IMG/VR virus record: IMGVR_UViG_3300021387_001157
Span: 32,001 to 96,000 of that record
Strand: one strand, 5' to 3'
Origin: a virus
Lineage: Duplodnaviria; Caudoviricetes
DNA: 64,000 nucleotides
Shown here: piece after piece, positions 13,422-48,875 of the stretch
Layout: each line of letters begins with the position of its first letter
How positions within the stretch are numbered: the first letter of the stretch is position 1
Translations under genes and position numbers: made by a program
Notes under the pieces: model-generated
The model's database searches: none
What the model saw: the letters and a program-made list of their open reading frames with translations, nothing else
What the model was told of the DNA's origin: nothing

Positions 13422-13658
13422 TTAACTTTCATCTTTCTTATCTTTTATGTATTTCAAAAAGTTATTAACTGGCCATTCAACATATGTGGCAAACAAAACA
13501 CTCCAACACAAGAAAAAGATTGACACCTTTATCCTTTTCGGTCTTCCAATCCTCTTTGTCACTTTTATTGTCGGTAAAAGATATATTTCGTGTTTGTTCC
13601 AATGGGAAATCACAACAAATTTCTTTGTCGACCCATCCTTGTTAGTTTTATACCACAT
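13422..13658 (-). CDS. Hypothetical protein
   Basis: ORF in a tightly packed run. Confidence 0.5.
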   Translation of the reverse strand: MWYKTNKDGSTKKFVVISHWNKHEIYLLPTIKVTKRIGRPKRIKVSIFFLCWSVLFATYVEWPVNNFLKYIKDKKDES

Positions 13659-32292: not shown

Positions 32293-33033
32293 TTAACGCT
32301 GCAAAATTGTCTGACCTTTTGTTCCATCATATTTCTCTATGATTGGTTTACACGTTTCTAGTACGGAGACGACTTTATCCAAGTCGAAGTAGTCGTTAGT
32401 CCGGACACCGGATTCCATATCAATCCAAAAGTCTCCTGAGACATTCTCATAGATATATGTGAGTTTCTCTGCACAATTCTCTGGATTAAATCCACCGGCA
32501 TATCCAACACATCCGTCGTAAGGATACAGTTGGATACTGGTATCGATTCCCTGCACACCACTGCCATCGATGAGAACAGACAATGTGCATTTGTTCCATT
32601 CATATTCCTTCCACTTCTCGACGGTATTCTTCAGTATCGAATCGTTAACTATATCTTTCTGCTGGATAATAATTTCCTGTCCAACGAAGATTGGTGCCCA
32701 ACAATATGCTGGGGTGTCGGTTTTGTTGGCGATGTTTAGTTGGATTCGTTTAAAGAGTTCGAGATTTCTGTTGATGAGATTATCGACATCGACCCATAAT
32801 CCCTCGGCGGCATTACTTGCAATGCTTCCACACAGATGGAGGGCGAGGTTGAGTTTCTTATCGTAAAACTTATGTATGAGACTCGGATTCAGATAACGGG
32901 GACCATTTTCGTTCCAATGTTTGCTTGCAAGAATTCCAAATTCAACAATTGGATACTCTTGCTGGATTTCCACTAGTCTGTCGATGTCTGTTTTCGAATC
33001 TACACCTGTGAATGTTATGTGTTTTAGTTTCAT
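32293..33033 (-). CDS. TIM-barrel protein, phosphoribosylanthranilate-isomerase-like
   Basis: ITFTGVD, LHLCG, RIQLN, GYAGG.NPEN and WIDMESGVR motifs. Confidence 0.65.
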   Translation of the reverse strand: MKLKHITFTGVDSKTDIDRLVEIQQEYPIVEFGILASKHWNENGPRYLNPSLIHKFYDKKLNLALHLCGSIASNAAEGLWVDVDNLINRNLELFKRIQLNIANKTDTPAYCWAPIFVGQEIIIQQKDIVNDSILKNTVEKWKEYEWNKCTLSVLIDGSGVQGIDTSIQLYPYDGCVGYAGGFNPENCAEKLTYIYENVSGDFWIDMESGVRTNDYFDLDKVVSVLETCKPIIEKYDGTKGQTILQR

Positions 33034-33371
33034 ATTTCTTTTGATTCGATTTTGTAGTCGTATAGTTTGTATTGTTTAAAAGTTATCATTACAGTTTCTC
33101 CGAATCGTGACATCTCTACAAGTCCTCCCAATGCTTTTATACCGATGGTCAGAAATAAATTATTTGTGGTTAGAATACTATAGACGGCTTTGTCGATTTC
33201 AGCAACCACTTCGTTGATGTCACATTCATCCGATGGTGCCGCTTCATTCAATATTTTTTGGAGAAATCCTGCATATTCATCCGGAGACTCGTTGGTTTTT
33301 TTCAGATTTTCTATGGTTGTATTAAACCTTGTTGTCGGTACTTTAACGTGTATTTGTATGTATTCTTTCAT
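33030..33371 (-). CDS. Hypothetical protein
   Basis: 113-aa ORF. Confidence 0.6.
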   Translation of the reverse strand: MKEYIQIHVKVPTTRFNTTIENLKKTNESPDEYAGFLQKILNEAAPSDECDINEVVAEIDKAVYSILTTNNLFLTIGIKALGGLVEMSRFGETVMITFKQYKLYDYKIESKEI

Positions 33372-33883
33372 ATCAATTCAAATTTGATGTTTGACGACAT
33401 AGTTCCTCTCGGAACAAAGATGGTATCGAATTCACCTACATATGGTTTTCTATATATTGTGAATCGTATATAGTTACTGATATTTCTTTCCTTATATTTT
33501 ATAGTTTGATTAATATGAGGATTATCATCAGTCTCAACTATAGCCGTATATTTCACCGGAACATTTTTTTGAACATAACTACCGTCTTCCTTTTTCACCA
33601 TCACAATGTAGTAGAAATCTTCATCTATCTGTGTTTTAGAGAAATATATGTTTTCATTTTGTACAGTTTTTGTTGCAATAATCTCATTATGGATGTTTTC
33701 CTCTGTTGGTTTAAAAAATGAGTCCATTGTAGAAATTTGAGAAATTATCCAAATGCAGAGACCTAAAATGATAGTTACTGCAAGATATACTGGAAATCCT
33801 TCAGAACGGAAATCTTTATCGAAGTGTCTGATGATATATAAAATGATGAACGCCGATAAAAATGAACTTAATAAAAATACCAT
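33368..33883 (-). CDS. Membrane protein
   Basis: Two N-terminal TM segments. Confidence 0.65.
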   Translation of the reverse strand: MVFLLSSFLSAFIILYIIRHFDKDFRSEGFPVYLAVTIILGLCIWIISQISTMDSFFKPTEENIHNEIIATKTVQNENIYFSKTQIDEDFYYIVMVKKEDGSYVQKNVPVKYTAIVETDDNPHINQTIKYKERNISNYIRFTIYRKPYVGEFDTIFVPRGTMSSNIKFELI

Positions 33884-33900
33884 AATTGTTTTGTTTTTTA

Positions 33901-34911
33901 TTATTTACATACCTCGTCCAAAGATGCACTGAGGTGTTTCGAAAATTCTCTGTATTTCTGTGAGTCGAATATCCATCGACCTCTTTTCTCTTGGCCATAG
34001 TCAATATCCATCTCTTCATAGATGGTACAAGGGTTTGGTTTGAGAATGAATATCTTGTCACTGATGTAGAGTGCTTCTTCCAGTGAGTGGGTGACGTTGA
34101 TGATGGTGTGCTCGGTTTCTGATGCAATCTTGATGATGAGGTCTTGAATATCCCTTTTCATCTTGATGTCCAATGCACCGGTTGCCTCATCCAGGAAGAA
34201 TACCTTACTGCCTGATGTGATGCATCGTGCAATGGACACCCTCTGCAACTGTCCTCCTGAAAGCTTCGAAGCATTGGCGTATTTACTGGCGTGTTCCTCA
34301 AGCCCAACCAGCTTGAGTGTCTCCATTGCCTTTTCACGTGCCTCCTTTTTGTCCATTCCTTTCAGGACCATAGGAAGTGCCACGTTGTCGATGACCGTCA
34401 TCCAATGGAATGACGAGTAACTCTGGAAAACCATGGGTACCGATTTGTACTCATTTATGTTCTGTCCAAATATTCTGATGTCACCTTTCTGTGGTGTCAT
34501 TAATCCGGCCGCCATTTTCAGAAGGCATGATTTACCACATCCACTACCTCCCATAATACTCACGACCTCCGATATCATAGGTTTGTCTTCCACCTTGAGT
34601 GAGAAGTCGTCGAAAATCTTGAACTCGTGTTCAGTCCCCTCATCGAAGATATGTGTGAGATGGTCAATTTCGAAAGAATATCGTTTTCCATCACCAATAG
34701 ATATTTTGGGAGATTTTTCAACCGGAGTCGAAACTGTAGCCGGAGCTGTAGTTGTCACAGGAACTGTAGCCGGAGATGTAGTTGGTTGAATTGGTTTCAT
34801 AAATGGATTGTTGGACACCGGTATAGAAGTTTTGGTCTCAATGGGTTTATCCGAATCCTTACTACCATCTATTGGTTTCGAAAATGCCGAAATATTTTTT
34901 TCCTTTGACAT
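33901..34911 (-). CDS. ABC transporter ATP-binding protein (TauB/SsuB/NitT type)
   Basis: GGSGCGKS, VFQ, LSGGQLQR, FLDE, VTHS.EEA. Confidence 0.92.
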   Translation of the reverse strand: MSKEKNISAFSKPIDGSKDSDKPIETKTSIPVSNNPFMKPIQPTTSPATVPVTTTAPATVSTPVEKSPKISIGDGKRYSFEIDHLTHIFDEGTEHEFKIFDDFSLKVEDKPMISEVVSIMGGSGCGKSCLLKMAAGLMTPQKGDIRIFGQNINEYKSVPMVFQSYSSFHWMTVIDNVALPMVLKGMDKKEAREKAMETLKLVGLEEHASKYANASKLSGGQLQRVSIARCITSGSKVFFLDEATGALDIKMKRDIQDLIIKIASETEHTIINVTHSLEEALYISDKIFILKPNPCTIYEEMDIDYGQEKRGRWIFDSQKYREFSKHLSASLDEVCK

Positions 34912-34913
34912 AG

Positions 34914-35723
34914 TTACTTCTTTGTGTGTGGGAATATTATTGGTTTCAAGAAATGGAAGAGTCTGTCTTGCAATAGTCCTATCATCACGATAATGAAGAG
35001 TAGGGCATATACTTCCGGAGTTCTACTCTGCCGAGTGAATGTGGAAATCATTGCACCGATTCCTCCGACTTTATTAAGACTCTCTGCAATGACGACGTAA
35101 GTGTAGGAGATGGCCACAAGACTTCTGATGTCATCGTATACCTTTTCCATCACATATGGGAAGTACACATACCGGAAAGTCTGCCAATTGGACATACCCA
35201 TTGTCTTTGCTGTCTGAAGATAGACATTATCATTTACATTGGTTGGGTTCTGTAAGTCTAGTACCTTACCGACAACGCTTGGAATGGTGAAGATGAAGAT
35301 ACCGAAAGCAAGGAAGAAAGATTTCATACCGAAGGAGAGTCCAAAGATGGAGATAAAGATTCCAGATACTGTTGGTAGCGGGAGGTATCGTAGTGCTTCA
35401 AAATATTTCCTGAACAACGAGTTGAACATAGGTATCATTCCTATGACAAATCCCAACGGTATTGCAAACAGAACTGCAATGAGATATCCAGAGATATTCA
35501 GCGACACCGTGTACCATATGTTGTCCAACAAGTGGTATTTCGAGAATAAGTCGGGAATGATGGATACAACCTTTACTGGATTAGGTAGGATGCCAGGACT
35601 GATGATTTCTCCAGTCAATGTCACGAGATACCATATCGTCACAAGAAATATGGCACCTATCGACCCAATAATCCTCCCATCTTTTTTCGAAATTTCCCCA
35701 CCAGGTTTGAAGTACTTTTTCAT
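34914..35723 (-). CDS. ABC transporter permease (TauC/SsuC type)
   Basis: About 6 TMs, LPNP motif, EAA-like loop (LQTAKTMG), VIAE. Confidence 0.9.
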   Translation of the reverse strand: MKKYFKPGGEISKKDGRIIGSIGAIFLVTIWYLVTLTGEIISPGILPNPVKVVSIIPDLFSKYHLLDNIWYTVSLNISGYLIAVLFAIPLGFVIGMIPMFNSLFRKYFEALRYLPLPTVSGIFISIFGLSFGMKSFFLAFGIFIFTIPSVVGKVLDLQNPTNVNDNVYLQTAKTMGMSNWQTFRYVYFPYVMEKVYDDIRSLVAISYTYVVIAESLNKVGGIGAMISTFTRQSRTPEVYALLFIIVMIGLLQDRLFHFLKPIIFPHTKK

Positions 35724-35745
35724 TTGATTTCTTTTTTAAAAGTTT

Positions 35746-35831
35746 AAAAGGGAGTCGGGCACTGACTCCCTTTCCAATTAAATAAACCTTTTTACCCTTT
35801 CTGGGGAGGGGAGTCAGAACGACCCCCCTTT
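35746..35831 (-). terminator. Twin hairpins between the SBP and permease genes
   Basis: aaaagggagtc-gggcact-gactcccttt and ggggagtc-agaac-gaccccc. Confidence 0.55.
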
Positions 35832-35838
35832 CACATCG

Positions 35839-37377
35839 TTATCGTTGGACCAGTTTCATTGATGTTGTTCGGTAGGACTGGTTGCTTCCAACTACTCCAT
35901 CCGAGATTGCACGCTTGGGTCCGTTACCCTCGACGATGAATCGGTTCTTATCGATACCTTGACGATTGAGATAGTTGGCTACACTCTGGGCACGTTGCTT
36001 TGATAGTTCGATGTTGTGCTGATAGCTACCAGTGTTGTCGGTGTTACCCTCGATTCGGACATAGCAGTTGTTGAACTGTTTGATGATAGGAAGCATCTCA
36101 CGCTCGATAATGGTCTCAGCATCGACACTCAATGCACTTCCATCGACGGGGAACTCGATAACCACTTCCTTATCAGAGAACGCCTCAGTAGATTTGACTT
36201 TCATCGACGGAGCAGAAAACTTACGTTTGGCGGTACCCTTTGCACTCTGGTCATTGCCAATCTCGTTGCTTGCCATCAGTGATTCGATAATTGAGGTCTC
36301 TGATACTTTACGCCACGGCAGTGTTGCTTTGGCCAATCCGATACCTCCATATACCTGACTCATCTTTGTGTAGAGATTCTCACCGGTGATTCCATCGTAT
36401 CCAATGGTGTTCAGACCGAACCAGTTGATGTTGTCGTCGAGGGTGGCGAAGTTAATCTTGCTGCCGACCGTCAGAACATCCTCCTCCGGAACATCGAACT
36501 CTTGTGAGAACACGTGGCAGATTTCCTTATACGTCTCTGGGTTGTTCATCTCGGAGTTTGCCCACATCAAGGCTTCTGCAATCTTCTTAGCAGTCTCCGG
36601 ATTGTCTTTCAACCACTCATCGTGGGCTAGGAATCCGTCTGTCACAAGAGTCTGGATATCTTTGGTACTTACTATGACGTGTGTGCCGGCAGGACCATTT
36701 TTGATACAAGCGTCGTCATCTGGGCAGAACACCACGGCTGCATCAGCAGTACCTGCCTTGAACGCCGTTGCAACGTCGGAACCATATCCAGTTGTGATAA
36801 TCTGCACGTCACTGTTGGAAAGACCATTGGCAGCGAGAGTATTGAGTAGGAGAGAATGGGATGCTGTACCTTCCGAGCAGACGATTTTCTTACCCTTCAA
36901 GTCTGCCACTCTCTTGATATTCTTGGTGGCCACGATGGCATCGGCACCAGCCGAGAAGTTGTGAATCATAAAATAACGGGCGTCGGTCATAGTGCCGGAC
37001 TGACTTGCCTCTACGGGATACGAATCGAGGGTACAGAAACGGAGGGCATTTTTGTGTTCCTTGAAGTATGAAGTTGCTCCGTCGAAGTCGTCCATTTGGA
37101 TAATCTTCAGCTTTACACCGAATCGTTTGTAGAACTCGGACTCCTTGCTTCCGTCCTTACCGCCGTTACCCCATACGATGGGAGACCAACCGGTATAAGT
37201 ATCCACTAGCAGAACTGCATCGTACTTACTGTCACCACCTCCAGTAATACCGGCGAGATTGATTCCAGATTTTTTTGCTCCGAAGAATATGCCTGCACCT
37301 AGCAGACCTACAACGAGAACGATTACTACTAGACGGCCTAAACCCGTCAATTTTGAAAAAGTGCTTTTGATACTCAT
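35839..37377 (-). CDS. Membrane-anchored NMT1/SsuA-type substrate-binding protein fused to an OmpA-like peptidoglycan-binding domain
   Basis: N-terminal TM; SAGADAIV...DLKGKKI; C-terminal IEGNTDNTG...N.ELSKQRAQSV..YL. Confidence 0.88.
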   Translation of the reverse strand: MSIKSTFSKLTGLGRLVVIVLVVGLLGAGIFFGAKKSGINLAGITGGGDSKYDAVLLVDTYTGWSPIVWGNGGKDGSKESEFYKRFGVKLKIIQMDDFDGATSYFKEHKNALRFCTLDSYPVEASQSGTMTDARYFMIHNFSAGADAIVATKNIKRVADLKGKKIVCSEGTASHSLLLNTLAANGLSNSDVQIITTGYGSDVATAFKAGTADAAVVFCPDDDACIKNGPAGTHVIVSTKDIQTLVTDGFLAHDEWLKDNPETAKKIAEALMWANSEMNNPETYKEICHVFSQEFDVPEEDVLTVGSKINFATLDDNINWFGLNTIGYDGITGENLYTKMSQVYGGIGLAKATLPWRKVSETSIIESLMASNEIGNDQSAKGTAKRKFSAPSMKVKSTEAFSDKEVVIEFPVDGSALSVDAETIIEREMLPIIKQFNNCYVRIEGNTDNTGSYQHNIELSKQRAQSVANYLNRQGIDKNRFIVEGNGPKRAISDGVVGSNQSYRTTSMKLVQR

Positions 37378-37450
37378 AATTTTTTTGATTTTGAAATGTT
37401 GATATTTTTATTTGTTATTGTGTTTGTTTCTTAAATTTTCGAGAAACTTA

Positions 37451-37666
37451 TCATGTTCCTTTTCTTTGGTTTTTGTTGTGTTTCGACAAAACCAAAAAGA
37501 TGGTCAATAAGATGGTCAATACAAGTGCAACTGGAATCCATATCGGTGATAAGACCCACCACCAAGACCATTGGACTACATTACAAAGCTTGAGAATGAT
37601 AAAGGCAATCGTAAGAAGTCCGATAAACCCTATTCCACTACTTGTTGCTGTTTTCGATTCACTCAT
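37451..37666 (-). CDS. Small conserved phage membrane protein
   Basis: LLTIAFIILKL..V.QWSWWWVLSPIW; first gene after the promoter at 37696. Confidence 0.75.
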   Translation of the reverse strand: MSESKTATSSGIGFIGLLTIAFIILKLCNVVQWSWWWVLSPIWIPVALVLTILLTIFLVLSKHNKNQRKGT

Positions 37667-37742
37667 TTTTTTTTTCTTTTAATTTCTTACATTTAAAAGA
37701 TACTATTTTTTTTTGGTGTTTTCGAAAAATGAAGAATATTTT

Positions 37743-38822
37743 TTAAAATAAATCTTCTTGTAGAACCGAGAGTGGCATCCACCACTTTACATGAGTCCGG
37801 TTATACAACTCCCACTTTCCATTGCAATAAGAGTTTACCAGTACAGCATGTCCATCACAGTCAAGCATGGTGATGTAGTATCCATCAGTATCTGGATATT
37901 CGTCCGTCTTCGGATTTCTTGGGTTTGAAACGGTCTTTGTCCAAGGAATGGATTTTTCGAGACTTTCCTTTTTTATAGAATATGTTTCTTTTAAATTATT
38001 GGTTTTATAGATTGAACCATACCCATGAAAAAGACCATTCGTGTATTCGAGTATAAAACCGGTATTACTTTTGAGAATCTGTAAAATCTCAGACGGACTC
38101 ATCTTTTTGTCTTCAGTCTTGTCCAATAATGCACGTGTACATACGTTCGCCTCGACGACGGAATCGTCTTCATAGAATGTGTAGGCGTCAACGGGTTCTC
38201 CCGTCACCTTGTTGTTTTTATACGGATGTTTGACAATCTCCTTCACGGTGTTGATTCGTTGACCACTCTTGAATGGTTTCCCAGAAAGCTTTACAACCTT
38301 GTCACCTGGTTCAACAATTGTGTGAAGTTCACGTATTGCTTTCCTCTCAGATTTCGAAAATCTATGCTCCAAAATATGATTTTTGATTTCATTGACTTTT
38401 TTATCGATTTGGTCAATTTCATCATATAAATCTTTAGCGTCTATGGCGATACTGGCTTCGATGAGATTTTCGAAATCGAATTTGTTTTCGTAGAACCACT
38501 TCACGATTTTTCCTATTCCCATAGGACTAAAAAACGTATCATTAGGGAATATCTTATCATACTCACGTTCCTCCTTATTGGTCATCGACATCATCCGTCT
38601 AAGATAAGGTCGAACCAAAACTTCGTCGAGTTTGATGGTTGTACGGAAAATACCCAAGAAATTCGTAACCGTTATCTCTTTCTTTACTATATCAACAGAT
38701 ATAAGTTTGGCTTTCTCCCATATAGCACTGTCGTCATTCCATTCGATATGGAGAATGAGTCCGTAGGGAAGTCTTGCAGACAACTGCTGCAATAAGATTC
38801 CCTGTCTATCTTCTTGCTTCAT
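37743..38822 (-). CDS. Multidomain hypothetical phage protein
   Basis: LSARLPYG...PYLR.M.SMT N-terminal module; C-terminal WWMPL. Confidence 0.7.
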   Translation of the reverse strand: MKQEDRQGILLQQLSARLPYGLILHIEWNDDSAIWEKAKLISVDIVKKEITVTNFLGIFRTTIKLDEVLVRPYLRRMMSMTNKEEREYDKIFPNDTFFSPMGIGKIVKWFYENKFDFENLIEASIAIDAKDLYDEIDQIDKKVNEIKNHILEHRFSKSERKAIRELHTIVEPGDKVVKLSGKPFKSGQRINTVKEIVKHPYKNNKVTGEPVDAYTFYEDDSVVEANVCTRALLDKTEDKKMSPSEILQILKSNTGFILEYTNGLFHGYGSIYKTNNLKETYSIKKESLEKSIPWTKTVSNPRNPKTDEYPDTDGYYITMLDCDGHAVLVNSYCNGKWELYNRTHVKWWMPLSVLQEDLF

Positions 38823-38826
38823 ATTT

Positions 38827-39420
38827 TTATTCTTTAAATTTCCAACAATCTCCAACTGTTTCTGCACCCGATTCGAGTTCGGTCAAAGCCGATGTTGCCC
38901 ATTTCTTCATTGGGTCGTCATCTTTTAGATGCAAATATCTTTCGAGTTTTTTTCTGATATTATTTCTTTCTTTTTCCGTATTTGGAAGGATGTTATATGC
39001 TTTCCAGGTTCCGTCTTCTTTTTGAAAAGCCTGGTACTTTTTATACTCACCACAATATGGGGCGTAGGCGACGACATTTCCTCCACTAAATGGTTCATGT
39101 CCGTCGATAAGGGCATGGACATTCTGCAAGAAAACTTGTAGAACCATTATGATGTCTCCCCTGTCTAGATAGAAACTCAGTGGGTTTTTATCCCAAAATA
39201 ATTTGGAAAGCATTGCACTTATATCGTGTGTCACACATATCAACACGACATAATAAGGATTCGATTCGTCTGATGAATTCCATATATTGTTCACAATTGT
39301 TCTATAATGTCCAATAAGGTCTTTGAACAATGAGTCATCCATTGTAATCCAGAATGGATGCTCCTTTATGGCATCATGCTCGGTTCTCAGAATACTGAGT
39401 CTTTCTTCTCTTGTTTTCAT
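38827..39420 (-). CDS. Hypothetical protein, paralog of 39900-40502
   Basis: P.WI, NPYY...CVTHD, GD.IMVLQ, QAF.K.DGT shared. Confidence 0.75.
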   Translation of the reverse strand: MKTREERLSILRTEHDAIKEHPFWITMDDSLFKDLIGHYRTIVNNIWNSSDESNPYYVVLICVTHDISAMLSKLFWDKNPLSFYLDRGDIIMVLQVFLQNVHALIDGHEPFSGGNVVAYAPYCGEYKKYQAFQKEDGTWKAYNILPNTEKERNNIRKKLERYLHLKDDDPMKKWATSALTELESGAETVGDCWKFKE

Positions 39421-39866
39421 TTTACTGTAAAACCTGATTTCTTTACAAGTTGTATTGCCTGTTCTAGAGCTTCTTTTTTCTTTCTCTCTTCATTCTCTTT
39501 TTTCTTCCTTTCGATTTCGATACCTTGGTCAATACGACTCTTAATCTTCTCGATTCTTTTTTTAGATTCTTCGTCCGATTCTGGTTCAGACCATGAAATC
39601 TCTGTTTCAAATGAAGCTTCCCAGTCTGCACCATTTGGGTTATATTGTTCGTCGTATCCCGTCATCTCAATTGTGACGTAAATATCGTCTGGATGGAATC
39701 CAATGGACTTCAGTTCTTTCTCTTTATTCTCGATTGCTTCCAACAATTCTTTCAAGTCTTCACTCGTTAGAGAGATTGTATTTAAACCGTCACAACAATA
39801 TTTCGGAAGACGACTGCTCTTCCAGACATCTATTTTATCGTCGATATCATATCCTCTGTATTCCAT
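39417..39866 (-). CDS. Hypothetical protein, paralog of 40499-40954
   Basis: MEYRG..IDD and QYNPNGAD...ISW shared. Confidence 0.75.
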   Translation of the reverse strand: MEYRGYDIDDKIDVWKSSRLPKYCCDGLNTISLTSEDLKELLEAIENKEKELKSIGFHPDDIYVTIEMTGYDEQYNPNGADWEASFETEISWSEPESDEESKKRIEKIKSRIDQGIEIERKKKENEERKKKEALEQAIQLVKKSGFTVK

Positions 39867-39899
39867 TTTAACAATCCTTTTAAATATTCAAATTTTTTA

Positions 39900-40502
39900 C
39901 TATTCTACTTTTAATATCCATGTTTCGCCAATCACGTCGTGTCCCTCTTCGATGTCTTTCATTGCATCTTGTGCCCATTTTTTACTAGGGCAGTCGTGCA
40001 GATTGATGTACTTTTCGATTGTTTTCCTGACGTTTGGAAGTTCATTCTTCGATATAACGTTATAGACAACGTATGTTCCGTCATCCTTTTTAAACGCTTG
40101 GAATTTCTTGATACCACCGCTTCTCGTGTAGGTGTATCCGACGACAGCACCTTCGTAGTCATTGTGGTCGATGATTCGGTGGATGTTCATCAGATAAATT
40201 TGGAGGACCATAATGACATCTCCCATATGTTCCTTCCACCGGTTATTGAACTCACCAAGTATGATGGAGTTGGAGATGTTCCCGAGCATACAGTTGAAGT
40301 CGTGAGTCACACATCTGATGATTGCATAATACGGGTTGGTCACATCTGCAATCCCCCAGTAGTTACGGGAAATCTCACCGAACTTTTTCAACACATCCGG
40401 AAGAAACCGATTGTCGAAGTTAATCCAGTAGGGACTCTCCTTCAGTTCGTCGTGTGCTTTCTTGACGTTTTCGAAACGCCGCTTGATTTCTTCGTTTGTC
40501 AT
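39900..40502 (-). CDS. Hypothetical protein, paralog of 38827-39420
   Basis: Shares the motifs listed for the paralog. Confidence 0.75.
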   Translation of the reverse strand: MTNEEIKRRFENVKKAHDELKESPYWINFDNRFLPDVLKKFGEISRNYWGIADVTNPYYAIIRCVTHDFNCMLGNISNSIILGEFNNRWKEHMGDVIMVLQIYLMNIHRIIDHNDYEGAVVGYTYTRSGGIKKFQAFKKDDGTYVVYNVISKNELPNVRKTIEKYINLHDCPSKKWAQDAMKDIEEGHDVIGETWILKVE

Positions 40503-40954
40503 ATTTTCAAATTTTTTACGGTTCCACCATTCTCCTCGATGGTCTTCACTGCTGCTACAAGTGCTTCACGTCTGATTCGTTCAACCCTTGCTTCACTGGC
40601 AATCCGGTCTTCAATGACCATATCGATTCGTTCCTTTTCCCACCGGATTCGTTTCTCCTTTTCCTCTTCATTCTCTTCCTCCATCCAAGAGATGTCGGTG
40701 ATGAATTCGGAGTCTTGGTCTGCACCATTCGGGTTATATTGTGCATCAATACCTAACATCTCTATCTTAACGTCACTGAACCGGACACCTTTCTCCTTGA
40801 GTTCGGATTCTTTCTTTCTGATAATTTCCTTCAACTCATCGAGTTCCTCGATTCCGAGTTCGATTCCATTGGAGTAGTCGTAGGTGAACTTATCCAACCT
40901 CTCGTATCTTTTGACATCTTTTGTGTCATCAATGTGTTGTCCTCTGTATTCCAT
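40499..40954 (-). CDS. Hypothetical protein, paralog of 39417-39866
   Basis: Start MEYRGQHIDD. Confidence 0.75.
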   Translation of the reverse strand: MEYRGQHIDDTKDVKRYERLDKFTYDYSNGIELGIEELDELKEIIRKKESELKEKGVRFSDVKIEMLGIDAQYNPNGADQDSEFITDISWMEEENEEEKEKRIRWEKERIDMVIEDRIASEARVERIRREALVAAVKTIEENGGTVKNLKI

Positions 40955-40958
40955 TTTA

Positions 40959-41630
40959 TTAATTGTTATAACGATTATTACTGATTTTGTTATCAATGAA
41001 CCACTTGGCGGCAGCCTCTGCATCAGACTTGGTGTTCCACTTCATATTGCCATCCTTATCCTTGATGTCTAGCTTACCTATCTTGGCATACCAATGGTTT
41101 CCACCATAGTTCTTGCAACTCTCTGGAAGTCCTAACGCCAAGTAGTCCATCTTCCCCCACTGCATATACCGTACCTCTTCTAGACGGTATTGCTCCTCTA
41201 TGGGAAACTCAAGACTGTCCTTGACAACCTCGTCGACAATCTCATCACCATCAACCATCATGGTTTCAACAACACCGTTGTCAAGATATATTTCACCACT
41301 GTATTTGTGGAAGTCCCTTACCCTGCTGTTGATGGTATCGTTCTCAAGACGTATCGCCGCTTCAATCCAGGAACATCTGAAAATATGCATTATTGGTTCG
41401 ACCGCCTTTGCCCAAGGAGTGATTGGATGTTCCGTGTACACACTGTATCCTTCTGGGTTAGATTTGTCTTTAATCAGATGACTGTTTTCCACATGGTCTC
41501 TTACACCGTCACGAATCTCTGCACCGAATATTTTCTTGAAGTGCTCTACAACCTGCTCCTCAGAATCCGGTTTGAAATACCAGTGACCATCATCTGAACC
41601 TTTTCTTTTTATCTTGACAAATTTGTACAT
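40959..41630 (-). CDS. Hypothetical protein
   Basis: About 223-aa ORF. Confidence 0.7.
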   Translation of the reverse strand: MYKFVKIKRKGSDDGHWYFKPDSEEQVVEHFKKIFGAEIRDGVRDHVENSHLIKDKSNPEGYSVYTEHPITPWAKAVEPIMHIFRCSWIEAAIRLENDTINSRVRDFHKYSGEIYLDNGVVETMMVDGDEIVDEVVKDSLEFPIEEQYRLEEVRYMQWGKMDYLALGLPESCKNYGGNHWYAKIGKLDIKDKDGNMKWNTKSDAEAAAKWFIDNKISNNRYNN

Positions 41631-41634
41631 GGTA

Positions 41635-42243
41635 TCAGATGTTGATTGATTTGACAAACTCTATGTGTTCCTTGCTCATCGGAACTCCGGTGAAGTTCAC
41701 GTTGAGGAAAGCTCTTCTTACTTTCTCGTCCGAACAGTTCTCACGGAGGAAATAGAATGTGAGGCAGTTTCTTCCCTTGAAAAACCTCTGGGCGGGCTTG
41801 CTGAAGTCCTTCCAATAATTGCCGTTGCTGCCTGGGAACTTATTTTCGAAAAAGTCCATGAGGCAGTTAAGTCTCTGTTTTCCGTCACGACTTCTTTTGT
41901 CTTCCTTGATGACGAGACTGTTCATCATACTTATTACATTATGCACAGAAGCGTTAGAAGTACTATCCCAGGGGAGGTCTGACATTATGTTGTCGAGTCC
42001 GGTTCCCATCAGTGAACTGCATCCATTGGTTCTTTTCTCCATCGATATGGTGGCGACCGGACTATTGTCGAGTCCAAGTTTTTCCATCATTCTTAATCCG
42101 AGAAGTTTTCTGACGACAGATTTGCCTGACGAGTTGCTTCCAGTTAAGACGGTTACCTTACCTGGTTCGATAGACTCTGCCACATCGATGATTCGGTCGA
42201 TATGACCGTTAATGTGTTCTGATGATAAATCTGTATAATCCAT
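41635..42243 (-). pseudogene. Probable chimera: P-loop ATPase N-terminus fused to a DUF262-like C-terminus
   Basis: Walker A LTGSNSSGKS without a Walker B; then DGKQRL...FLNVNFTGVPM. Confidence 0.5.
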
Positions 42244-42244
42244 T

Positions 42245-42883
42245 TTATATATATTTTTCAGTTAGTTTTCTTTCTGTTATATGTCTTTCTCCGGACATGA
42301 GATACTCAATTTGGTTTTCGAAAACCATATCTTTCCTGACAAATGTGGTAAGAACTCTGTATTCTTTCTCTCGTGTTCCAAATCCAACTCCGTCATCCAT
42401 ACTCCAGAATATACTGTTCTCGTGGTTAGGACACTGATAGTTAATACTGGAAAGTATTCTGTTCTTAGTGAAGAAATTGGTTATCAGACTTATACGGTTA
42501 TCAGACTCACACTGTCCAAGTCTTTCCATATATCTGTCAAAAAAGTGTGGGGTGATGAACAAGAATTTGTCACCTTTATTGTAGAGTGAGCAGACCCATA
42601 CTCTGTTGTTTCTTCTAAATGTTGAAAAGGTGAGAGTTTTTAATCCATTCTTCAAATAGTCACGCTTTCCGTATGTGGAGATTATCAGATGATACTCAAT
42701 ACCAGAGTTCTTGCTTGTGAAATCAACCCTGTTGAAATAACGAAGGTTGTCATCTGTCATTCTAAGGCAAGCCTTTCTGTACTTAGAATCCGAAATAACA
42801 GAGATAATCTTTCTATGAACATAGTCCATTTCTGAAATAATCAGATTCTTGATTTCATTGAGTGTCATTGTGTCTACATACAT
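42245..42883 (-). CDS. Hypothetical protein
   Basis: TPHFFDRY.ER motif. Confidence 0.7.
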   Translation of the reverse strand: MYVDTMTLNEIKNLIISEMDYVHRKIISVISDSKYRKACLRMTDDNLRYFNRVDFTSKNSGIEYHLIISTYGKRDYLKNGLKTLTFSTFRRNNRVWVCSLYNKGDKFLFITPHFFDRYMERLGQCESDNRISLITNFFTKNRILSSINYQCPNHENSIFWSMDDGVGFGTREKEYRVLTTFVRKDMVFENQIEYLMSGERHITERKLTEKYI

Positions 42884-42895
42884 GGCTCATGAAAT

Positions 42896-43375
42896 TTAAA
42901 GTTTGACAATACTTTTCACGACCCTTGACAAGTAGTCGTAGTGGAGGAACATATATAAACTAGGCTCTACCGGTTTGCCTCCGTCATACTGAATTTCGTA
43001 GAATGTCTTGTATCCTTCTTCAGTATTCTTTATTGAAAAGACCGAGAACATATGGTCACTGAGAAGTGAAAGTGTCTTTGCTTTCCTCAGGGCGGCTTCA
43101 TAATCGTCCGTGAGATAAAGCGTGTCCATTAATGACTCAGACAGCACACAGAATTTATAGTTGGGGTTGACACTCTCCCTTCCTATAGTCATCATAAGTT
43201 CGTCATGGTTGGTCACATTATAGTCTGGACGTGAGACTATGTTTTTAAGAACATTTATTTTTTTAGATACATCATCTGTTTCTAAATTCACACTCTTAAA
43301 AAACTCTATAAATGATTCAAGGGAAGTTGCTGCCCATTGAATAGTGTCAATTTCTTCTTTTCCAATTATTTTCAT
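42896..43375 (-). CDS. Hypothetical early protein
   Basis: First gene after promoter-repeat copy 2. Confidence 0.7.
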   Translation of the reverse strand: MKIIGKEEIDTIQWAATSLESFIEFFKSVNLETDDVSKKINVLKNIVSRPDYNVTNHDELMMTIGRESVNPNYKFCVLSESLMDTLYLTDDYEAALRKAKTLSLLSDHMFSVFSIKNTEEGYKTFYEIQYDGGKPVEPSLYMFLHYDYLSRVVKSIVKL

Positions 43376-43391
43376 TTTGTTTCCTTTTTAA

Positions 43392-43532
43392 TTTCTGATG
43401 CAAAGATACGAACTTTTTTTGAATTACCAAACTTTTTTTTCAAAAAAATTTAATTTTTTTCGTAACTGCTTAGTTTAGTGAAAGTAAAAAATGATTTTTT
43501 TTTCAATCACTATATAAAATCCTTTGCAAAAT
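43392..43532 (-). promoter_or_regulatory. Dispersed promoter repeat, copy 2
   Basis: tttctgatgcaaagatacgaactttttttgaattaccaaac...cgtaactgctt. Confidence 0.85.
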
Positions 43533-43650
43533 AATAAAAAAGAAACCTGTTTTTAAAAAAAATAGACACCTTTAAAAAGAATCAGACAACTCGTCTCAGT
43601 AAGAGGGAGTTATCTGATTTTCGAAAAAAAGGAAAACAAGTATGTAGACA

Positions 43651-43842
43651 TCAACCTACGTTTTCAAGTATATATTGTATCAGTATTTCTTTCGGAATTT
43701 GGTCAAGCATTTCCCTTGCTTTCTTTTTGTTTGCTTCAATGTCTTCAGTTGGGAGACGTTGAAGCATGATAGCAGAACCATTTTCCACAACTTTATTTTC
43801 TTTTCTATATAGAGATACTGCTTCTTTTATCTTTTCTTTCAT
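43651..43842 (-). CDS. Hypothetical protein
   Basis: 63-aa ORF. Confidence 0.55.
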   Translation of the reverse strand: MKEKIKEAVSLYRKENKVVENGSAIMLQRLPTEDIEANKKKAREMLDQIPKEILIQYILENVG

Positions 43843-43846
43843 TTAC

Positions 43847-44383
43847 TTATGTTTTTTCGAGTGTATCCAAATCTAGGTTTTCGAAAATCTTCATGAATTT
43901 TTCAAACTCGGGATTTCTCCAAGCGTTCATACAGTATGCTCTTGGTCTTGAATAATGGTAATAGTTTAACTTGATATGTTGTTCGGCTGCTCGTTTAGTC
44001 AGGAAGCAACCTGTCTTGTCTGATAGTTTTTCATAAGATTCGTACTCGTGGGTATCGACGATTCTATTTAGGTACTGTCGTGCAAATCCGAGTACATCCT
44101 CTTCGAATACTTTATTGATGTGTTTCCACTTGATACATATGTCGGATGTTTGGTCTGGTAGGAGATTCTCTTCGATGTATTCGACATAATCCTCAATTGA
44201 GTCGAAAACCTTGTTATCTTGTGTCGAATCTATAATCTTGACAAAATCCCCATAACCTTCTTCGGTGAGTCGCTCCCCCGATTCCATTATTCCCCAGAAT
44301 CGGGGGGTGGCAGTACCTTCTGTGTCTTGTTCTCTGAGTTCCTTCTGTAGGGTTTTCAGAAACTCAAGCTCTTCTTTTGTCAT
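43847..44383 (-). CDS. Conserved phage hypothetical protein
   Basis: EL..QD...TA.PRFW, FLT..AA..HI..N.YHY, AWRNPE. Confidence 0.7.
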   Translation of the reverse strand: MTKEELEFLKTLQKELREQDTEGTATPRFWGIMESGERLTEEGYGDFVKIIDSTQDNKVFDSIEDYVEYIEENLLPDQTSDICIKWKHINKVFEEDVLGFARQYLNRIVDTHEYESYEKLSDKTGCFLTKRAAEQHIKLNYYHYSRPRAYCMNAWRNPEFEKFMKIFENLDLDTLEKT

Positions 44384-44385
44384 AA

Positions 44386-45492
44386 TCAACCTCCGAAATA
44401 TGAAGACTTGGGTGTTTCTCCTGATGTGGAGTCTGGAATAGGTTCTGGAGTTGCAATCTCAGAAAACTCTATCGTCTCGGTTTGAATACCGGAACCAATT
44501 GCCTTATGAGAGAAACTGATGTTACCGGTATCTTCAACGGGTTTGTCAAAGATTCCAAACCCATTCTTCTCAAACTCAGCCATTATTTCATTTGCCTTGT
44601 CCAAGTTGATGTCGGAGTTGATTTCAAAATTTGTAAGGATGTCGTTACTTCCGTCGATGAGTCTGTTGATTTCGGCAATTGACTGATTGATGGTATCGTT
44701 CACAGTCTTCATGGCGAGTTCCTGTTCCATAGAGGAAGTAAGAATACCGTGCATGATGGAGTTGATGTTTTTCATTGCCGTGCTCTGGGCGACTGCCTGC
44801 TCATACTCCTCTACTCTGAAGTCATGTTCGTTCTGAGCATCTTGCACTTTATATCCAACAGCAATTTGGAGTTTCTGCATCACTTTCAGATATTTCTCCG
44901 AAGTCTGTATTCTTGCACGTTGGTTCTCGATTTGCTTCTTTCCTCGAACAATCTCGTTGGAAGTTAATTGGAGTTGAGCCATGAGTTTTGTTCTCTCACT
45001 CTGGTCGGTAGTGTTCCTGAGTTTGTTTTCAATGGCGGTTTTCTTACGGACGTTGTTTTCGAAATTCTCCTCATATTCTTTCAACTTCCGTTTCATTCTT
45101 ACAAGGATGCTGCCGAGATTCGTCACATTCTTGTCGATGATTTGGAGTTTCTCCCTCATCTCTCGGATACCGTTTTCAAGGATGGCGATTGGGTCAATAT
45201 TGACGACCAGTCCGTAGGCTTTTCTCATCAGTTGTAACCACAACAGACTGATAAGTCTCCGAGTTTTCTTGTTGGTCACGATATAGACGATGGCGGCAAG
45301 GGCGGCAAGTTCGGCGACGAACAATAGTAGATTTGCTGTCGCTGCCACGAGGAACGGGAGTGCAAACTTGAAGAATGCATATCCGATTCCTAGTATGGCC
45401 AAGATACCGGTCAGTTTTGCAAACCCACCACCGGGTCTTTTCCACAATTCTTTGAATTTGTCTTTTGGTTGAATGGCTACATTGTTGTCCAT
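44386..45492 (-). CDS. Membrane-anchored PspA/IM30-like coiled-coil protein
   Basis: Two N-terminal TMs, then IDPIAILENGIREMREKL (cf. PspA EDP..L...I.DM) and a long coiled coil. Confidence 0.6.
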   Translation of the reverse strand: MDNNVAIQPKDKFKELWKRPGGGFAKLTGILAILGIGYAFFKFALPFLVAATANLLLFVAELAALAAIVYIVTNKKTRRLISLLWLQLMRKAYGLVVNIDPIAILENGIREMREKLQIIDKNVTNLGSILVRMKRKLKEYEENFENNVRKKTAIENKLRNTTDQSERTKLMAQLQLTSNEIVRGKKQIENQRARIQTSEKYLKVMQKLQIAVGYKVQDAQNEHDFRVEEYEQAVAQSTAMKNINSIMHGILTSSMEQELAMKTVNDTINQSIAEINRLIDGSNDILTNFEINSDINLDKANEIMAEFEKNGFGIFDKPVEDTGNISFSHKAIGSGIQTETIEFSEIATPEPIPDSTSGETPKSSYFGG

Positions 45493-45512
45493 ATTTTTTC
45501 CTTTCTTGTTGA

Positions 45513-46196
45513 TTAGATTGTTAATGATTCTATTTTTTGACGGTCGGTGTTCAGAACATCCAATACAGACTGGATGGAGGCGTTGAACATCATTCGGTTG
45601 TTGTTGATTTCAACCTTTGCTGCTTGCATTGCCATATTCTTCTCACCGATTTGTTCCATGAGGGCATCATATTCTGCCTTCATCTGCTGGGCACGGGTTT
45701 GCATCTCTGTTATTTCTGTCTCCACACTGGAAACTTTTTCGTGCTCCAATTTGTCCAACTCACCGAGTCCTGTCTGTTTCTCGGTCTCCACCACACCAAG
45801 GTAGAAGTCGATTGCCTGAAGAATGGCGTTCTTATCGAAGTTCGGGTATTGTCCTTTCAACACATTGAAGGCTGCTGAAATCTTCTGCTCCAAGGTGATT
45901 GGGAGACTGTCTAAACTTTGCAGGGTCGTCTTGAGTTCGAGATAGTCGGGACCTGGCCGGTTCTGAGCGACGATTGCATTCCAAATTCGGTCAATGATGT
46001 TCTTGTCTGCCACTGCTGTCGGGGAACTGGTACTCTGTTCGATTGTCGATGTAGGGGCGAATGACGATGAGATTGAACCCATTGAACTAACAGGAATCTG
46101 AGTGCCTACATTTGTAGTGTCTTGGACAACCTCTTTCGAAACTTGTGGGTCTTCCTTGATGAGAGCTCTTTTGATTTTTTCTCCTATTGATGCCAT
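45513..46196 (-). CDS. Soluble helical/coiled-coil protein, likely partner of the PspA-like protein
   Basis: N.PGPDYLE motif, C-terminal coiled coil; directly upstream. Confidence 0.65.
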   Translation of the reverse strand: MASIGEKIKRALIKEDPQVSKEVVQDTTNVGTQIPVSSMGSISSSFAPTSTIEQSTSSPTAVADKNIIDRIWNAIVAQNRPGPDYLELKTTLQSLDSLPITLEQKISAAFNVLKGQYPNFDKNAILQAIDFYLGVVETEKQTGLGELDKLEHEKVSSVETEITEMQTRAQQMKAEYDALMEQIGEKNMAMQAAKVEINNNRMMFNASIQSVLDVLNTDRQKIESLTI

Positions 46197-46226
46197 TTTA
46201 CTTTCTTTTTTTAATTGTTAGACAAG

Positions 46227-46889
46227 TTAGAAAGCGAGTCGTGCAACGAGCCAAGGTTGGAAGTTCCAATTCCCGTCTCCATGTAAGGATAACTTGGGGT
46301 CGTTACCATTGACGTTGAAGAGCATAAGGTTCACACCAACATGTACCATCGGAGTAATTTTGTAATACACCTTCTGCTCGGTACAAAGGTTGAATGAATC
46401 GAGTCCCCACGTGTCGAGATAACCCTCATAGTAGAACTTTTCGAAATCTGCACTGCTATTGATACTGAACTGCCAGTTGCTTCCACTGCCGAAATCGTAT
46501 CGGTACATTGGAGTTAGGTTGAAACAGAAGTTACCCAACAGAAGTTCGTATGCAAAACCGGCGTTAATCATATTGTGGTCGGGCCAGTACATGGCGGTAG
46601 GTACCTTGAAGTAGGGAAAATCTGATGTCCGGAATCTGGTCTCCAAATGTCCGAGGATGTGGGAACCGGCGATTCTGTATTCTCCGTAGAGGATGCCGTA
46701 ACCCACGGCCTGGTTGTTGGTCACTGTGAACTCATTGTACGAATACACGTTGAAGTTGCTGTCTGACTTGAAAAAGTCGGCGACGAACTTCTGATTTCCG
46801 TCATAGGACTGATGCCACTGAATACTTTGAGCATTTGCTGCTGCTGCCATCACAAATACGGCGATGATTGTGAAAAGAACTTTCTTCAT
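46227..46889 (-). CDS. Outer-membrane beta-barrel, DUF5020/Tsx-like
   Basis: Signal peptide ...ANA-Q, amphipathic aromatic beta strands, C-terminal Phe (WLVARLAF). Confidence 0.6.
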   Translation of the reverse strand: MKKVLFTIIAVFVMAAAANAQSIQWHQSYDGNQKFVADFFKSDSNFNVYSYNEFTVTNNQAVGYGILYGEYRIAGSHILGHLETRFRTSDFPYFKVPTAMYWPDHNMINAGFAYELLLGNFCFNLTPMYRYDFGSGSNWQFSINSSADFEKFYYEGYLDTWGLDSFNLCTEQKVYYKITPMVHVGVNLMLFNVNGNDPKLSLHGDGNWNFQPWLVARLAF

Positions 46890-46910
46890 TTTTTGTGTTT
46901 TTAAATGTTT

Positions 46911-47189
46911 TTATTTGTTGTTTAAGATTTCGTAGTTGTACAGAGGCATAATTTCTCCATCATATAGTTCCCATTCGTTTGTCACGTCTTTAAAGGAGAA
47001 GAATTGTTCGTAGTATTCCACACGTGTGCTTGGAAACCGAATTCCCCTTTCTGTGTCATTTGACGTTTCCACGATATACTTCTTTTCCGAGTCGTCTTCT
47101 TCGAGTTCTATGAAGTAGGATTTGTGCCACAAGACTGACCGGACACGCTTGCCTTCCAAGAGACATTTTATTGCTTCTGTGAAATTCAT
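46911..47189 (-). CDS. DUF2829/Tad2-like small protein
   Basis: MNF.EAI..L.EGKRVR..W at the N-terminus; D...EWE at the C-terminus. Confidence 0.4.
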   Translation of the reverse strand: MNFTEAIKCLLEGKRVRSVLWHKSYFIELEEDDSEKKYIVETSNDTERGIRFPSTRVEYYEQFFSFKDVTNEWELYDGEIMPLYNYEILNNK

Positions 47190-47298
47190 ATTGCTTTTTG
47201 GTTTTGGGTTTTTACAAGAATCTATGGTTCATCTTTTCCTTAAACTTTTTAATTTTCGAAAGAGTTGCTGTGTGATTCTTTACACTACCCATTGTTTC

Positions 47299-47550
47299 TT
47301 ATCCGATGTTATCGACTTCGATTTCTTCTTCCCTCACGAAAGTCACACTTTGACTCTTCACCCAGAGTGGGGCGTCGACATCTTGCTGCAGGTGGTGTCC
47401 GTCCCATTGGAGACAATTGTCGAAAGGGAGACCAGGAAGATGGTTGTCAAGCGGGATGATGCAAGGTGTTCCTTGTACGATGATGAGCTGACCCTCTATC
47501 CATTCGTTATTCCAACGCTGTGCTTTGAATATTTGAACCTTTATTTTCAT
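47299..47550 (-). CDS. Hypothetical protein (YopX-like N-terminus)
   Basis: FKAQR...EWIEG.L. Confidence 0.55.
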   Translation of the reverse strand: MKIKVQIFKAQRWNNEWIEGQLIIVQGTPCIIPLDNHLPGLPFDNCLQWDGHHLQQDVDAPLWVKSQSVTFVREEEIEVDNIG

Positions 47551-47654
47551 TTGTATTTCCTTTCGTTTAAAAGATACTATTATTTTTCGAAACTCTAAAA
47601 AAATTATTTTTTTTCTTCGATTTTCTCAATTTTTATTTTTCATATCTAAAATTT

Positions 47655-48875
47655 TTATAAGTTTGGCAATTCGGACACTTTACGGATAAGAATTCTGAAA
47701 TATGGACATTTTCCATTTATTGACAAGTCCTTATCATCATTACCTTTACGGAATTTGATTATCTCAAATTGGTTTGGGTTATAGTGTTCCAGATATGTGA
47801 TGGGAACGCCGATAACACCGTCATAATCGGCCGGAATGTTCTTTACCGAACCAGCGTCTATTGCTTTGTAGTTGTCATAAGTTGGGTAGTCATCTGGGTT
47901 GTATTTCTTATACAATGGAATCTTTTCGATTCTCTTTTCGTGTTCAAGGTTTGTGTACCAAACAATGTTTCCGAATCTTTGGTAAACAACACCATCTTCA
48001 ATAAACTGGTTTTTATTGTTTTCATCAATATCCTCGACAGGTATTCTGAATATTGAAGGTCTTGAAAAACCCAACCAAACCTTGTTGTCCTTTATCAGTG
48101 GAAAAAACTCCTTGTATGTGATAGCGTTCTCTGGACCGATTACAATGAACTTCTTACCCATCGTGATAAGTTGTTCAATGAAGTCACGGAAGCGGCTGAA
48201 CGGAGGGTTTGTAATAACAATGTCACACTCTTTCATAATCTCACGACACTCACGACTGTCGAATGAACCGTTACCCTTCAATGGGTAAAAGTCAATCTCA
48301 CTTTCGTCGATGAATCTGTTATCCTCATACTCACCGTTGTACTCCCATTTGTAACCACATTTCTCCAAGTCCCATTCGGCCTTGTAACCGACACCGTGTG
48401 GGTTGTATTGTGTGAAGATGACCTTTTTCAAACCAAGTGTGTGGAACAACTTAGTGAAATAATTTACGAACTCACTACGCCCTTCGTTGCAAACCTTGTC
48501 ACAAGGACAATATACTATTTTTCCTTTGAAGAATTTTTTGTAATGATTCATTTCTTTCGAAATGTCATCCATTGTAGTGTAGAAGTCATCATTCTTCTCC
48601 CTTTTGGCCTTTGCCATATTTTTGTTATTCTTTTTTGTCTTTTTTGTCTTTCTTGTTTTTGTTGTATCAACATCATCTTCAAAAAGCGGTTCGAATGCAA
48701 CTTCCTTCGATGTTGAGTAAGGAACAAACGAATTTTTCTTCAGATACTTTGCAGAAAAACCTGGACAGTTACGTAGAGCCCAGTGCCCTGTGGTTTCGTT
48801 GAAGAAAAGTTCACACCCATCTGGTACGCTGATTTTAGGTCTTATATTTTTGTCTGTCTGAAAATTTTTTTCCAT
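47655..48875 (-). CDS. Adenine-specific DNA methyltransferase, EcoRI family
   Basis: KNDDFYT, VYCPCD, GNGSFDS, DIVITNPPFS, GVPIT; about 86-aa N-terminal extension. Confidence 0.9.
   Translation of the reverse strand: MEKNFQTDKNIRPKISVPDGCELFFNETTGHWALRNCPGFSAKYLKKNSFVPYSTSKEVAFEPLFEDDVDTTKTRKTKKTKKNNKNMAKAKREKNDDFYTTMDDISKEMNHYKKFFKGKIVYCPCDKVCNEGRSEFVNYFTKLFHTLGLKKVIFTQYNPHGVGYKAEWDLEKCGYKWEYNGEYEDNRFIDESEIDFYPLKGNGSFDSRECREIMKECDIVITNPPFSRFRDFIEQLITMGKKFIVIGPENAITYKEFFPLIKDNKVWLGFSRPSIFRIPVEDIDENNKNQFIEDGVVYQRFGNIVWYTNLEHEKRIEKIPLYKKYNPDDYPTYDNYKAIDAGSVKNIPADYDGVIGVPITYLEHYNPNQFEIIKFRKGNDDKDLSINGKCPYFRILIRKVSELPNL

Follow-up and report, generated by a model that had tools for sequence, protein, structure and literature searches.

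Two genome comparisons, both made without experiments, describe the closest relatives of the locus analysed here. Ravi et al. (2024, mSystems 9:e00847-23; PMC11237479, section 18) identified the same operon type computationally in bacteria, mentioned a coiled-coil third gene in Bacteroidetes, and proposed that membrane remodelling and solute transport are linked. Yuan & Chen (bioRxiv 10.64898/2026.10.24.761521, Oct 2026) found 189 pspA genes in 184 huge phages; 15 of these 189 genes adjoin genes for a binding protein, a permease and an ATPase, and the figure for a "2-TM transporter substrate-binding protein" is 10. The same work reports that Lak and other huge phages encode outer-membrane barrels beside transport genes. 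The conserved partner protein, a barrel inside the module and split forms of the module are described in neither paper. We examined a stretch of viral DNA of 64,000 nucleotides (hereafter, the window) that comprises bases 32001-96000 of the 193,840-bp IMG/VR virus record IMGVR_UViG_3300021387_001157 (estimated completeness: 67%). It encodes a PspA-like protein, a helical partner protein, a substrate-binding protein fused to an OmpA-like domain (SBP-OmpA), the permease and the ATPase of an ATP-binding cassette (ABC) importer, and a probable outer-membrane beta-barrel. The operon type itself is already known; what is new here is the addition of the barrel and the tolerance of the module to insertions that split it.

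With modest confidence, we read this locus as a Bacteroidota-type envelope module in a Lak-related rumen megaphage, made of a five-gene core with an added barrel, split by 7 kb, and serving import together with membrane maintenance. An earlier note on this DNA had described six genes; the listing of open reading frames (ORFs) returns all six intact, on the minus strand and with the same coordinates (Table 1). The label "phage-encoded" also holds, because the SBP-OmpA protein is 44% identical to proteins of Prevotella Lak megaphages; its identity to the homologue in the 735-kb phage LR756501 is 38%. Near-identical DNA is contained in cattle and sheep gut metagenomes, and contigs of 377-388 kb carry close relatives of individual genes. 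A megablast search of the whole region against GenBank phages gave no match.

We consider it very likely that the half encoding the PspA-like protein with its partner and the half encoding the importer form one system. Comparison of phage and metagenome loci by tblastn of the window proteins recovered the order partner, PspA-like protein, SBP-OmpA, permease, ATPase in Lak-A2, LR756501, L008/L009, L010, L013 and L014, with either no gene or one small ORF between module members. At one further locus (L011) the binding part and the OmpA part are encoded as separate genes. In all, the module genes adjoin one another in this order in 10 phage or metagenome loci besides the window. A search for related loci with alignment A1 produced three viral loci, and in phage G no PspA-like gene was detected within 10 kb of the transporter at the sensitivity used. 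Three out of three PspA-like relatives of about 20% identity, chosen blind to their context, have the same module neighbours. Both halves are also under purifying selection, as judged from the ratio of non-synonymous to synonymous substitution rates (dN/dS) between the module genes of the window and those of the related locus L012 (0.07-0.21 overall; 0.11 for SBP-OmpA and 0.08 for the barrel).

The same arrangement is found in bacteria. A scan with an SBP-OmpA alignment over one genome per prokaryotic species returned 444 stretches, and the best 80 of these were searched with profiles of each component. The PspA-like gene was present in 67 of the 80 bacterial loci, the partner in 64 (directly upstream of the PspA-like gene, as in the phage loci), the permease in 59 and the ATPase in 57; many of the missing components concern short contigs or positions near contig ends. 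Gene order and strand are almost always as in the phages. Most carriers belong to the Bacteroidota (Saprospiraceae, Chitinophagaceae, Aquimarina, Lacihabitans, Prolixibacteraceae), and among them are isolates and closed chromosomes, such as Aquimarina rubra, Niastella vici and an 8.9-Mb Saprospiraceae chromosome. The flanks of the Aquimarina operon look chromosomal rather than like a prophage.

These observations support the proposal of the earlier note that a single system has been split by about 7 kb: other phage and bacterial loci have the same genes side by side in an unchanged order, and homologues of the genes at 44386 and 45513 co-occur with SBP-OmpA genes in both groups. A further statement made there, that similar genes are contiguous in some Bacteroidota, proved correct for most of the 80 mainly Bacteroidota loci. 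The accompanying statement that phages rarely carry whole ABC importers loses weight, because the module is widespread and had already been noted in two papers. The two halves in the window could instead be unrelated neighbours, namely a cluster of importer morons and a separate cluster of coiled-coil and barrel genes that happen to lie 7 kb apart. About 12 genes do separate them, each half has its own, seemingly separate promoter-like motif, and a complex prediction that paired the partner with the soluble part of the PspA-like protein (residues 75-320) returned a score of 0.00, which speaks neither for nor against an interaction. We give this explanation very little credence: it is contradicted by the synteny data, as nearly all other phage and bacterial loci show contiguity in the same order, and relatives with inserts of 0, 2 and 8 kb form a graded series.

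Table 1. Coordinates (window numbering) of the module genes, the insert and the promoter-like motif.
Feature	Position	Strand	Evidence or remark
ABC ATPase, 336 amino acids (aa)	33901..34911	minus	PF00005, 94.9 bits
ABC permease of the type I importer kind, 269 aa	34914..35723	minus	BPD_transp_1 (PF00528, 32.4 bits)
SBP-OmpA fusion, 512 aa	35839..37377	minus	NMT1-type and OmpA_C domains
Protein with two transmembrane (TM) segments, 71 aa	37451..37666	minus	phrog_1374; directly upstream of the SBP-OmpA gene
Promoter-like motif TAGTATCTTTTAAA, second exact copy	37692..37705	minus	Upstream of the 71-aa ORF, SBP-OmpA, permease and ATPase
Insert, about 12 small phage ORFs	37378..44385	minus	Separates the module halves
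PspA-like protein, 368 aa	44386..45492	minus	AlphaFold2 (AF2) model, Foldseek, weak PF04012 matches across the family
Helical partner, 227 aa	45513..46196	minus	AF2 model, alignments, synteny
Exported probable outer-membrane beta-barrel, 220 aa	46227..46889	minus	Signal peptide, amphipathic strands
Promoter-like motif TAGTATCTTTTAAA	47566..47579	minus	Upstream of 83-aa and 92-aa ORFs, barrel, partner and PspA-like gene
Sites of the degenerate motif (including)	11645, 13219, 15499, 24356, 30002, 37692, 47566, 48898, 61607		

From the start of the SBP-OmpA gene (37377) to the end of the PspA-like gene (44386) the split measures 7,008 bp. An insert of this size is confined to the window and to the roughly 90%-identical relative L012, where it spans about 8 kb, and is absent from most other loci. 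It contains two tandem pairs of paralogues and a 180-aa phrog_3205 protein at 43847-44389, and its ORFs gave no informative family matches. Relatives with 50-60% identity in the PspA-like protein carry insertions of graded extent at varied junctions and have kept every module gene. In L097, a 2-kb insert occupies the same junction as in the window and contains homologues of the 180-aa and 200-aa insert genes of the window. In L098, three genes lie between binding protein and permease, and in L096 and L099 two genes are found at this position. Since the module survives cuts at different junctions, an arrangement as a single operon is not required. The 71-aa protein directly upstream of the SBP-OmpA gene is an uncertain member of the module.

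The insert itself has two features of separate interest. Within 38827-41023, the segment 38827-39420 resembles 39900-40502 and the segment 39417-39866 resembles 40499-41023, with cross-hits on L012 at 39-41% identity; this looks like a duplicated two-gene unit. In L012 (13263-15164), the homologue of a 202-aa P-loop-like gene (window 41635-42243) is broken into two pieces (13263-13631 and 14916-15164) by about 1.3 kb of extra DNA. This interruption may be a mobile insertion, for example a homing-endonuclease gene or an intron.

Each half of the module is preceded by an exact copy of the 14-mer TAGTATCTTTTAAA. The more general motif TAGTATCTTT[TG]AAA, with up to two mismatches, occurs at 14 sites in the window (1.2 expected). 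The minus (coding) strand carries 12 of them, and the majority of those coding-strand sites that were read lie just upstream of gene starts. On these grounds the motif is a putative promoter. Its TAnnTTTG-like element, typical of the -7 box of Bacteroidota promoters, makes it a possible promoter for the host RNA polymerase; the motif may thus be the host-type promoter of the phage and a clue to its host. With the insertion between its two halves, the module seems to run from two copies of this host-type motif. Scans of 32500-48000 for sigma-70 promoters and intrinsic terminators stayed at chance level, and Bacteroidota promoters are outside the coverage of the tool used.

Contigs from four RNA libraries of three ruminant-gut studies cover both halves of the module. 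One of these, a contig of 2,860 nt, corresponds to 43924-46783 and includes the barrel, partner and PspA-like genes. Contigs from RNA libraries cannot prove transcription or a single transcript. They give little or no cover over 37841-43648, from which neither silence of the insert nor a rank order of expression follows.

The three importer genes encode the full set of parts of a type I ABC importer of the NitT/TauT family. The scores of the ATPase (PF00005, 94.9 bits), permease (PF00528, 32.4 bits) and NMT1/SsuA/TauA-class periplasmic binding domain (PF09084, 61.2 bits) are all above the family cut-offs. The Walker A motif (GGSGCGKS), the LSGGQ signature, Walker B with the catalytic glutamate, and the H-loop can all be read in the ATPase sequence, which begins with a Pro/Thr-rich extension of about 75 residues. 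In the permease, the type I importer domain is of the ordinary kind and includes a coupling loop. The binding protein has a single N-terminal TM segment ahead of its binding domain, and an OmpA_C domain (PF00691) that scores 59 bits against a cut-off of 27.2. In this domain the peptidoglycan-binding motif TD...LS..RA is recognizable, with D447 and R462 invariant in alignment A4, and PDB relatives of the domain include PA0833-PD, YiaD and Pal. Over its full length the protein matches phrog_25518.

The best matches of the ATPase are of the nitrate, taurine, sulfonate and polyamine types. None of the curated substrate equivalogs (NCBIfam) was reached (SsuA_fam: 75 against a cut-off of 163; TauC: 50 against 342; ntrCD: 157 against 292). 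All curated substrate families were thus missed by wide margins, which gives no basis for assigning a named substrate. As judged from sequence topology, the module proteins together would span the outer membrane, the peptidoglycan and the inner membrane. The suggestions in the earlier note that the module scavenges nucleotide precursors, stabilises the envelope, or guards against depolarising defences are speculation.

The 368-aa protein is distantly PspA/IM30-like (ESCRT-III superfamily), with a likeness that stays below the family's own threshold. In its sequence, long helices come after a hydrophobic hairpin located at about residues 23-75. The AF2 model (predicted local distance difference test, pLDDT, 70) starts with a TM hairpin formed by residues of about 28-50 and 55-73. 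A basic amphipathic helix (75-96) lies between this TM hairpin and a long hairpin (101-160 / 164-244), and two helices (253-287 and 293-310) and a disordered tail complete the model. Downstream of the TM hairpin and amphipathic helix, the predicted helices resemble the pattern of an ESCRT-III fold. A Foldseek search of this model against the PDB returned Vipp1 or PspA for all of the top seven matches (E 4e-3 to 2e-2). Of 64 diverse members of the family, 18 match PF04012 weakly (best E 7.3e-7), more than match any other Pfam family, and two relatives carry the JGI label "phage shock protein A". The family comprises 1,235 representatives at 50% identity. The earlier note had called the protein PspA-like; the helical hairpin predicted by the model, the Foldseek ranking and the PF04012 matches across the family support this description, with the qualifications that the likeness is distant and the PF04012 threshold is missed. 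No match to PF04012 at its gathering score was found for the window protein, nor at E<=1 in the whole virus record, and the family profile reached Vipp1 in the PDB only at a non-significant E of 0.81.

The partner is a helical protein without TM segment or signal peptide and is predicted to be cytoplasmic. Its AF2 model (pLDDT 78, and >90 over residues 60-227) opens with a short N-terminal helix and a disordered linker, which are followed by a three-helix unit and a helical hairpin (122-171 / 176-223). The three-helix unit carries the conserved motif N-x-PG-x-DY-x-E (alignments A3 and A5). Foldseek comparison of this model with the PDB gave nothing below E 0.1 and no clear relative.

The sequence of the 220-aa protein and a scan for hydropathy and alternation show a clear Sec signal with the end ANA/Q, several amphipathic stretches of alternating pattern, and phenylalanine as the C-terminal residue. 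Judged from these features and from its language-model likeness (0.94-0.96) to the DUF481, DUF5020 and Tsx clusters, it is probably an outer-membrane beta-barrel. No Pfam match was found for 23 members of its family, and the family profile found no match in the PDB. A barrel homologue was not found in Lak-A2, LR756501, phage G or the 80 bacterial loci at the sensitivity used. Within the gut-megaphage clade to which the window belongs, a barrel gene lies inside or beside the module in all eight loci examined, at identities from 92% down to 30%, and three of these loci were found with the barrel alone as the query. Its position varies: it lies upstream of the partner at three loci (the window, L012 and L097), immediately behind the binding protein at two (L098 and L100), and, as the commonest placement, directly upstream of the permease in L096, L099, L100 and a 113-kb contig of P0276. 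On this contig the module order is permuted, and the identities of the 217-aa and 364-aa genes there are deduced from length and position only. The eight of eight loci make a good case by guilt by association, and we regard the barrel as quite likely a clade-specific sixth component. The assertion of the earlier note that the barrel belongs with the module is thereby upheld within this phage clade.

How might such a module work? We envisage that a Lak-related rumen megaphage carries an envelope module that stems from bacteria (Bacteroidota type), into which a 7-kb block of small phage genes would have entered between the PspA-like and binding-protein genes. During infection, the barrel may admit a small solute across the outer membrane. 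The wall-tethered binding protein, a receptor pinned to both the inner membrane and the peptidoglycan, would pass this solute to the importer. On the cytoplasmic face, a polymer of the PspA-like protein together with the partner could keep the inner membrane tight and energised, or could tune the transporter. The phage would thus borrow the module to sustain a productive long infection. We put this mechanism of import plus membrane maintenance forward tentatively, at somewhat less than even chances. A further-reaching version, in which the operon of this clade recruited a dedicated outer-membrane channel and so became a phage-built three-layer uptake route (outer membrane, wall-tethered receptor, inner-membrane pump) physically coupled to an ESCRT-III-like membrane-maintenance polymer, with the coupling of transport and remodelling as the family's real function in bacteria, seems rather doubtful.

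Two observations weigh against a function in import alone. Ralstonia phage RsoM2USA has no ABC genes near its genes for the partner, for the PspA-like protein and for a binding protein of the NMT1_3/TAXI type, and in 9 of the 80 bacterial loci the operon is followed by a gene for a two-domain AAA+ ATPase (for example L047:11972-13876, about 630 aa, AAA + AAA_lid_6; carriers are Aquimarina, Lacihabitans, Saccharicrinis and other Bacteroidota). The 193,840-bp phage record, with an estimated completeness of 67%, contains no match to this ATPase. Both observations would suit an importer that does not import: the tethered binding protein would sense a periplasmic ligand or the distance between membrane and wall and, with the ABC proteins, steer the PspA-like polymer as an envelope-stress sensor and effector. 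A binding protein tethered to membrane and peptidoglycan at once is indeed odd for a shuttle, and the AAA+ neighbour recalls the remodelling operons of Ravi et al. However, the permease has the coupling loop of an ordinary type I importer domain, the ATPase is intact, and the barrel lies mostly directly upstream of the permease, a placement that fits a transport route better. No type I importer is known to act as a mechanotransmitter, which also counts against this explanation, and we judge it unlikely.

A role in conflict must be weighed as well. PspA proteins counter membrane damage and outer-membrane proteins are common phage receptors; the module could accordingly protect the membrane from depolarising abortive-infection effectors, delay lysis or exclude superinfecting phages, with the barrel perhaps as a decoy or mask. 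Huge phages often have PspA beside membrane genes such as SPFH (10.64898/2026.10.24.761521), and a Band_7/SPFH gene follows the module in L096 (7616-8626) and L099 (12064-13080). No Band_7/SPFH gene was seen downstream of the ATPase gene in the window. Against this explanation, the same five genes form a chromosomal operon in many free-living Bacteroidota without any phage context, which favours a housekeeping or stress role that the phage merely borrowed. PADLOC returned only generic MotB-like and ABC-like matches, and none of these concerned the barrel, the partner or the PspA-like protein, so that a defence or anti-defence label is unsupported. We therefore regard a conflict role as improbable, and import with membrane maintenance remains our preferred reading.

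In a tree of binding proteins, the window groups with strong support with L012, L013, Lak-A2, L014, L016, L017 and L090. The last three are the contigs nearest to the window that are assigned to gut or rumen metagenome-assembled genomes; they may be mis-binned phage DNA. LR756501 stands beside a Prolixibacteraceae/Lentimicrobiaceae group, and L008 falls inside a large, mainly Saprospiraceae group. The tree comes from a quick search, with a midpoint root for drawing only. It demands at least five changes of the phage label, so that several exchanges of the module between bacteria and phages are likely; we make no claim on the direction of each.

Other genes in the window are recorded here in their own right. 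At 51748-52752 lies a second phage gene directed at outer-membrane transport energetics; its product of 334 aa carries a TonB C-terminal domain (PF03544, 53 bits). The window also encodes an EcoRI-type adenine methyltransferase (47655-48875; 348 bits), a complete S-adenosylmethionine synthetase (56823-58010) and a short PurA-like protein (61646-62734). A DUF2828/DUF7788 (TROVE/Ro60-like) protein is encoded at 9999-11561, and RsoM2USA has a gene for a TROVE/vWA protein (L015:5258-6724) that precedes the partner and PspA-like genes of that phage by about 1 kb; this parallel may be coincidence. The palindrome TTTCGAAA occurs 53 times in the window, within and between genes, with 3.7 occurrences expected.

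The five-gene core is widespread, and very large phages appear to have captured it on several occasions. The pairing of a PspA/ESCRT-III-like protein with an ABC importer hints that the repair or remodelling of membranes is linked to solute transport in a way that is absent from current models of either. The phage clade described here offers two natural experiments on this link: the module has been cut by insertions and yet kept, and it has gained a probable outer-membrane partner. The latter favours a transport role. With cultured carriers among Aquimarina, Niastella and Lacihabitans, the function of the module is within experimental reach.

Several known systems share parts of this architecture. 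The barrel resembles Tsx, DUF5020 and DUF481 barrels in size, signal peptide and language-model features, and differs in that no hidden Markov model of these families matches it, even by way of the family profile. The NitT/TauT importers (SsuABC, TauABC, NrtABCD, ThiXYZ) have in common with the module an NMT1/SsuA-class binding domain, a BPD_transp_1 permease and an ATPase. Unlike in those systems, the binding protein here is TM-anchored and fused to an OmpA-like domain, and the curated cut-offs are missed.

E. coli PspA works with PspB and PspC, and LiaH of B. subtilis is anchored by the small membrane protein LiaI. With these classical Psp/Lia systems the module would share a PspA-type helical protein at the cytoplasmic face of the membrane. 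According to the model, the anchor, a TM hairpin, is fused to the PspA-like protein, as though LiaI had been joined to LiaH. The module contains no genes for PspB, PspC, PspF or LiaFSR, and the Psp/Lia systems have no counterpart of its transporter or of its wall-tethered binding protein.

The phage survey (10.64898/2026.10.24.761521) devotes one sentence to the association of PspA with ABC genes and covers neither the OmpA fusion, the partner, the bacterial operon of origin, the barrel inside the module nor the split forms. The operon type of Ravi et al. (PMC11237479) is the closest match: its TM-anchored ESCRT-III-like gene, ABC ATPase, permease and PBPb+OmpA fusion are all present in the window. 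An AAA+ ATPase is frequent in that operon type and not obligatory, and none was found in this phage record. What sets the locus described here apart from the operon of Ravi et al. is its location on a phage, the 7-kb split and the additional gene for an exported, probable barrel protein.

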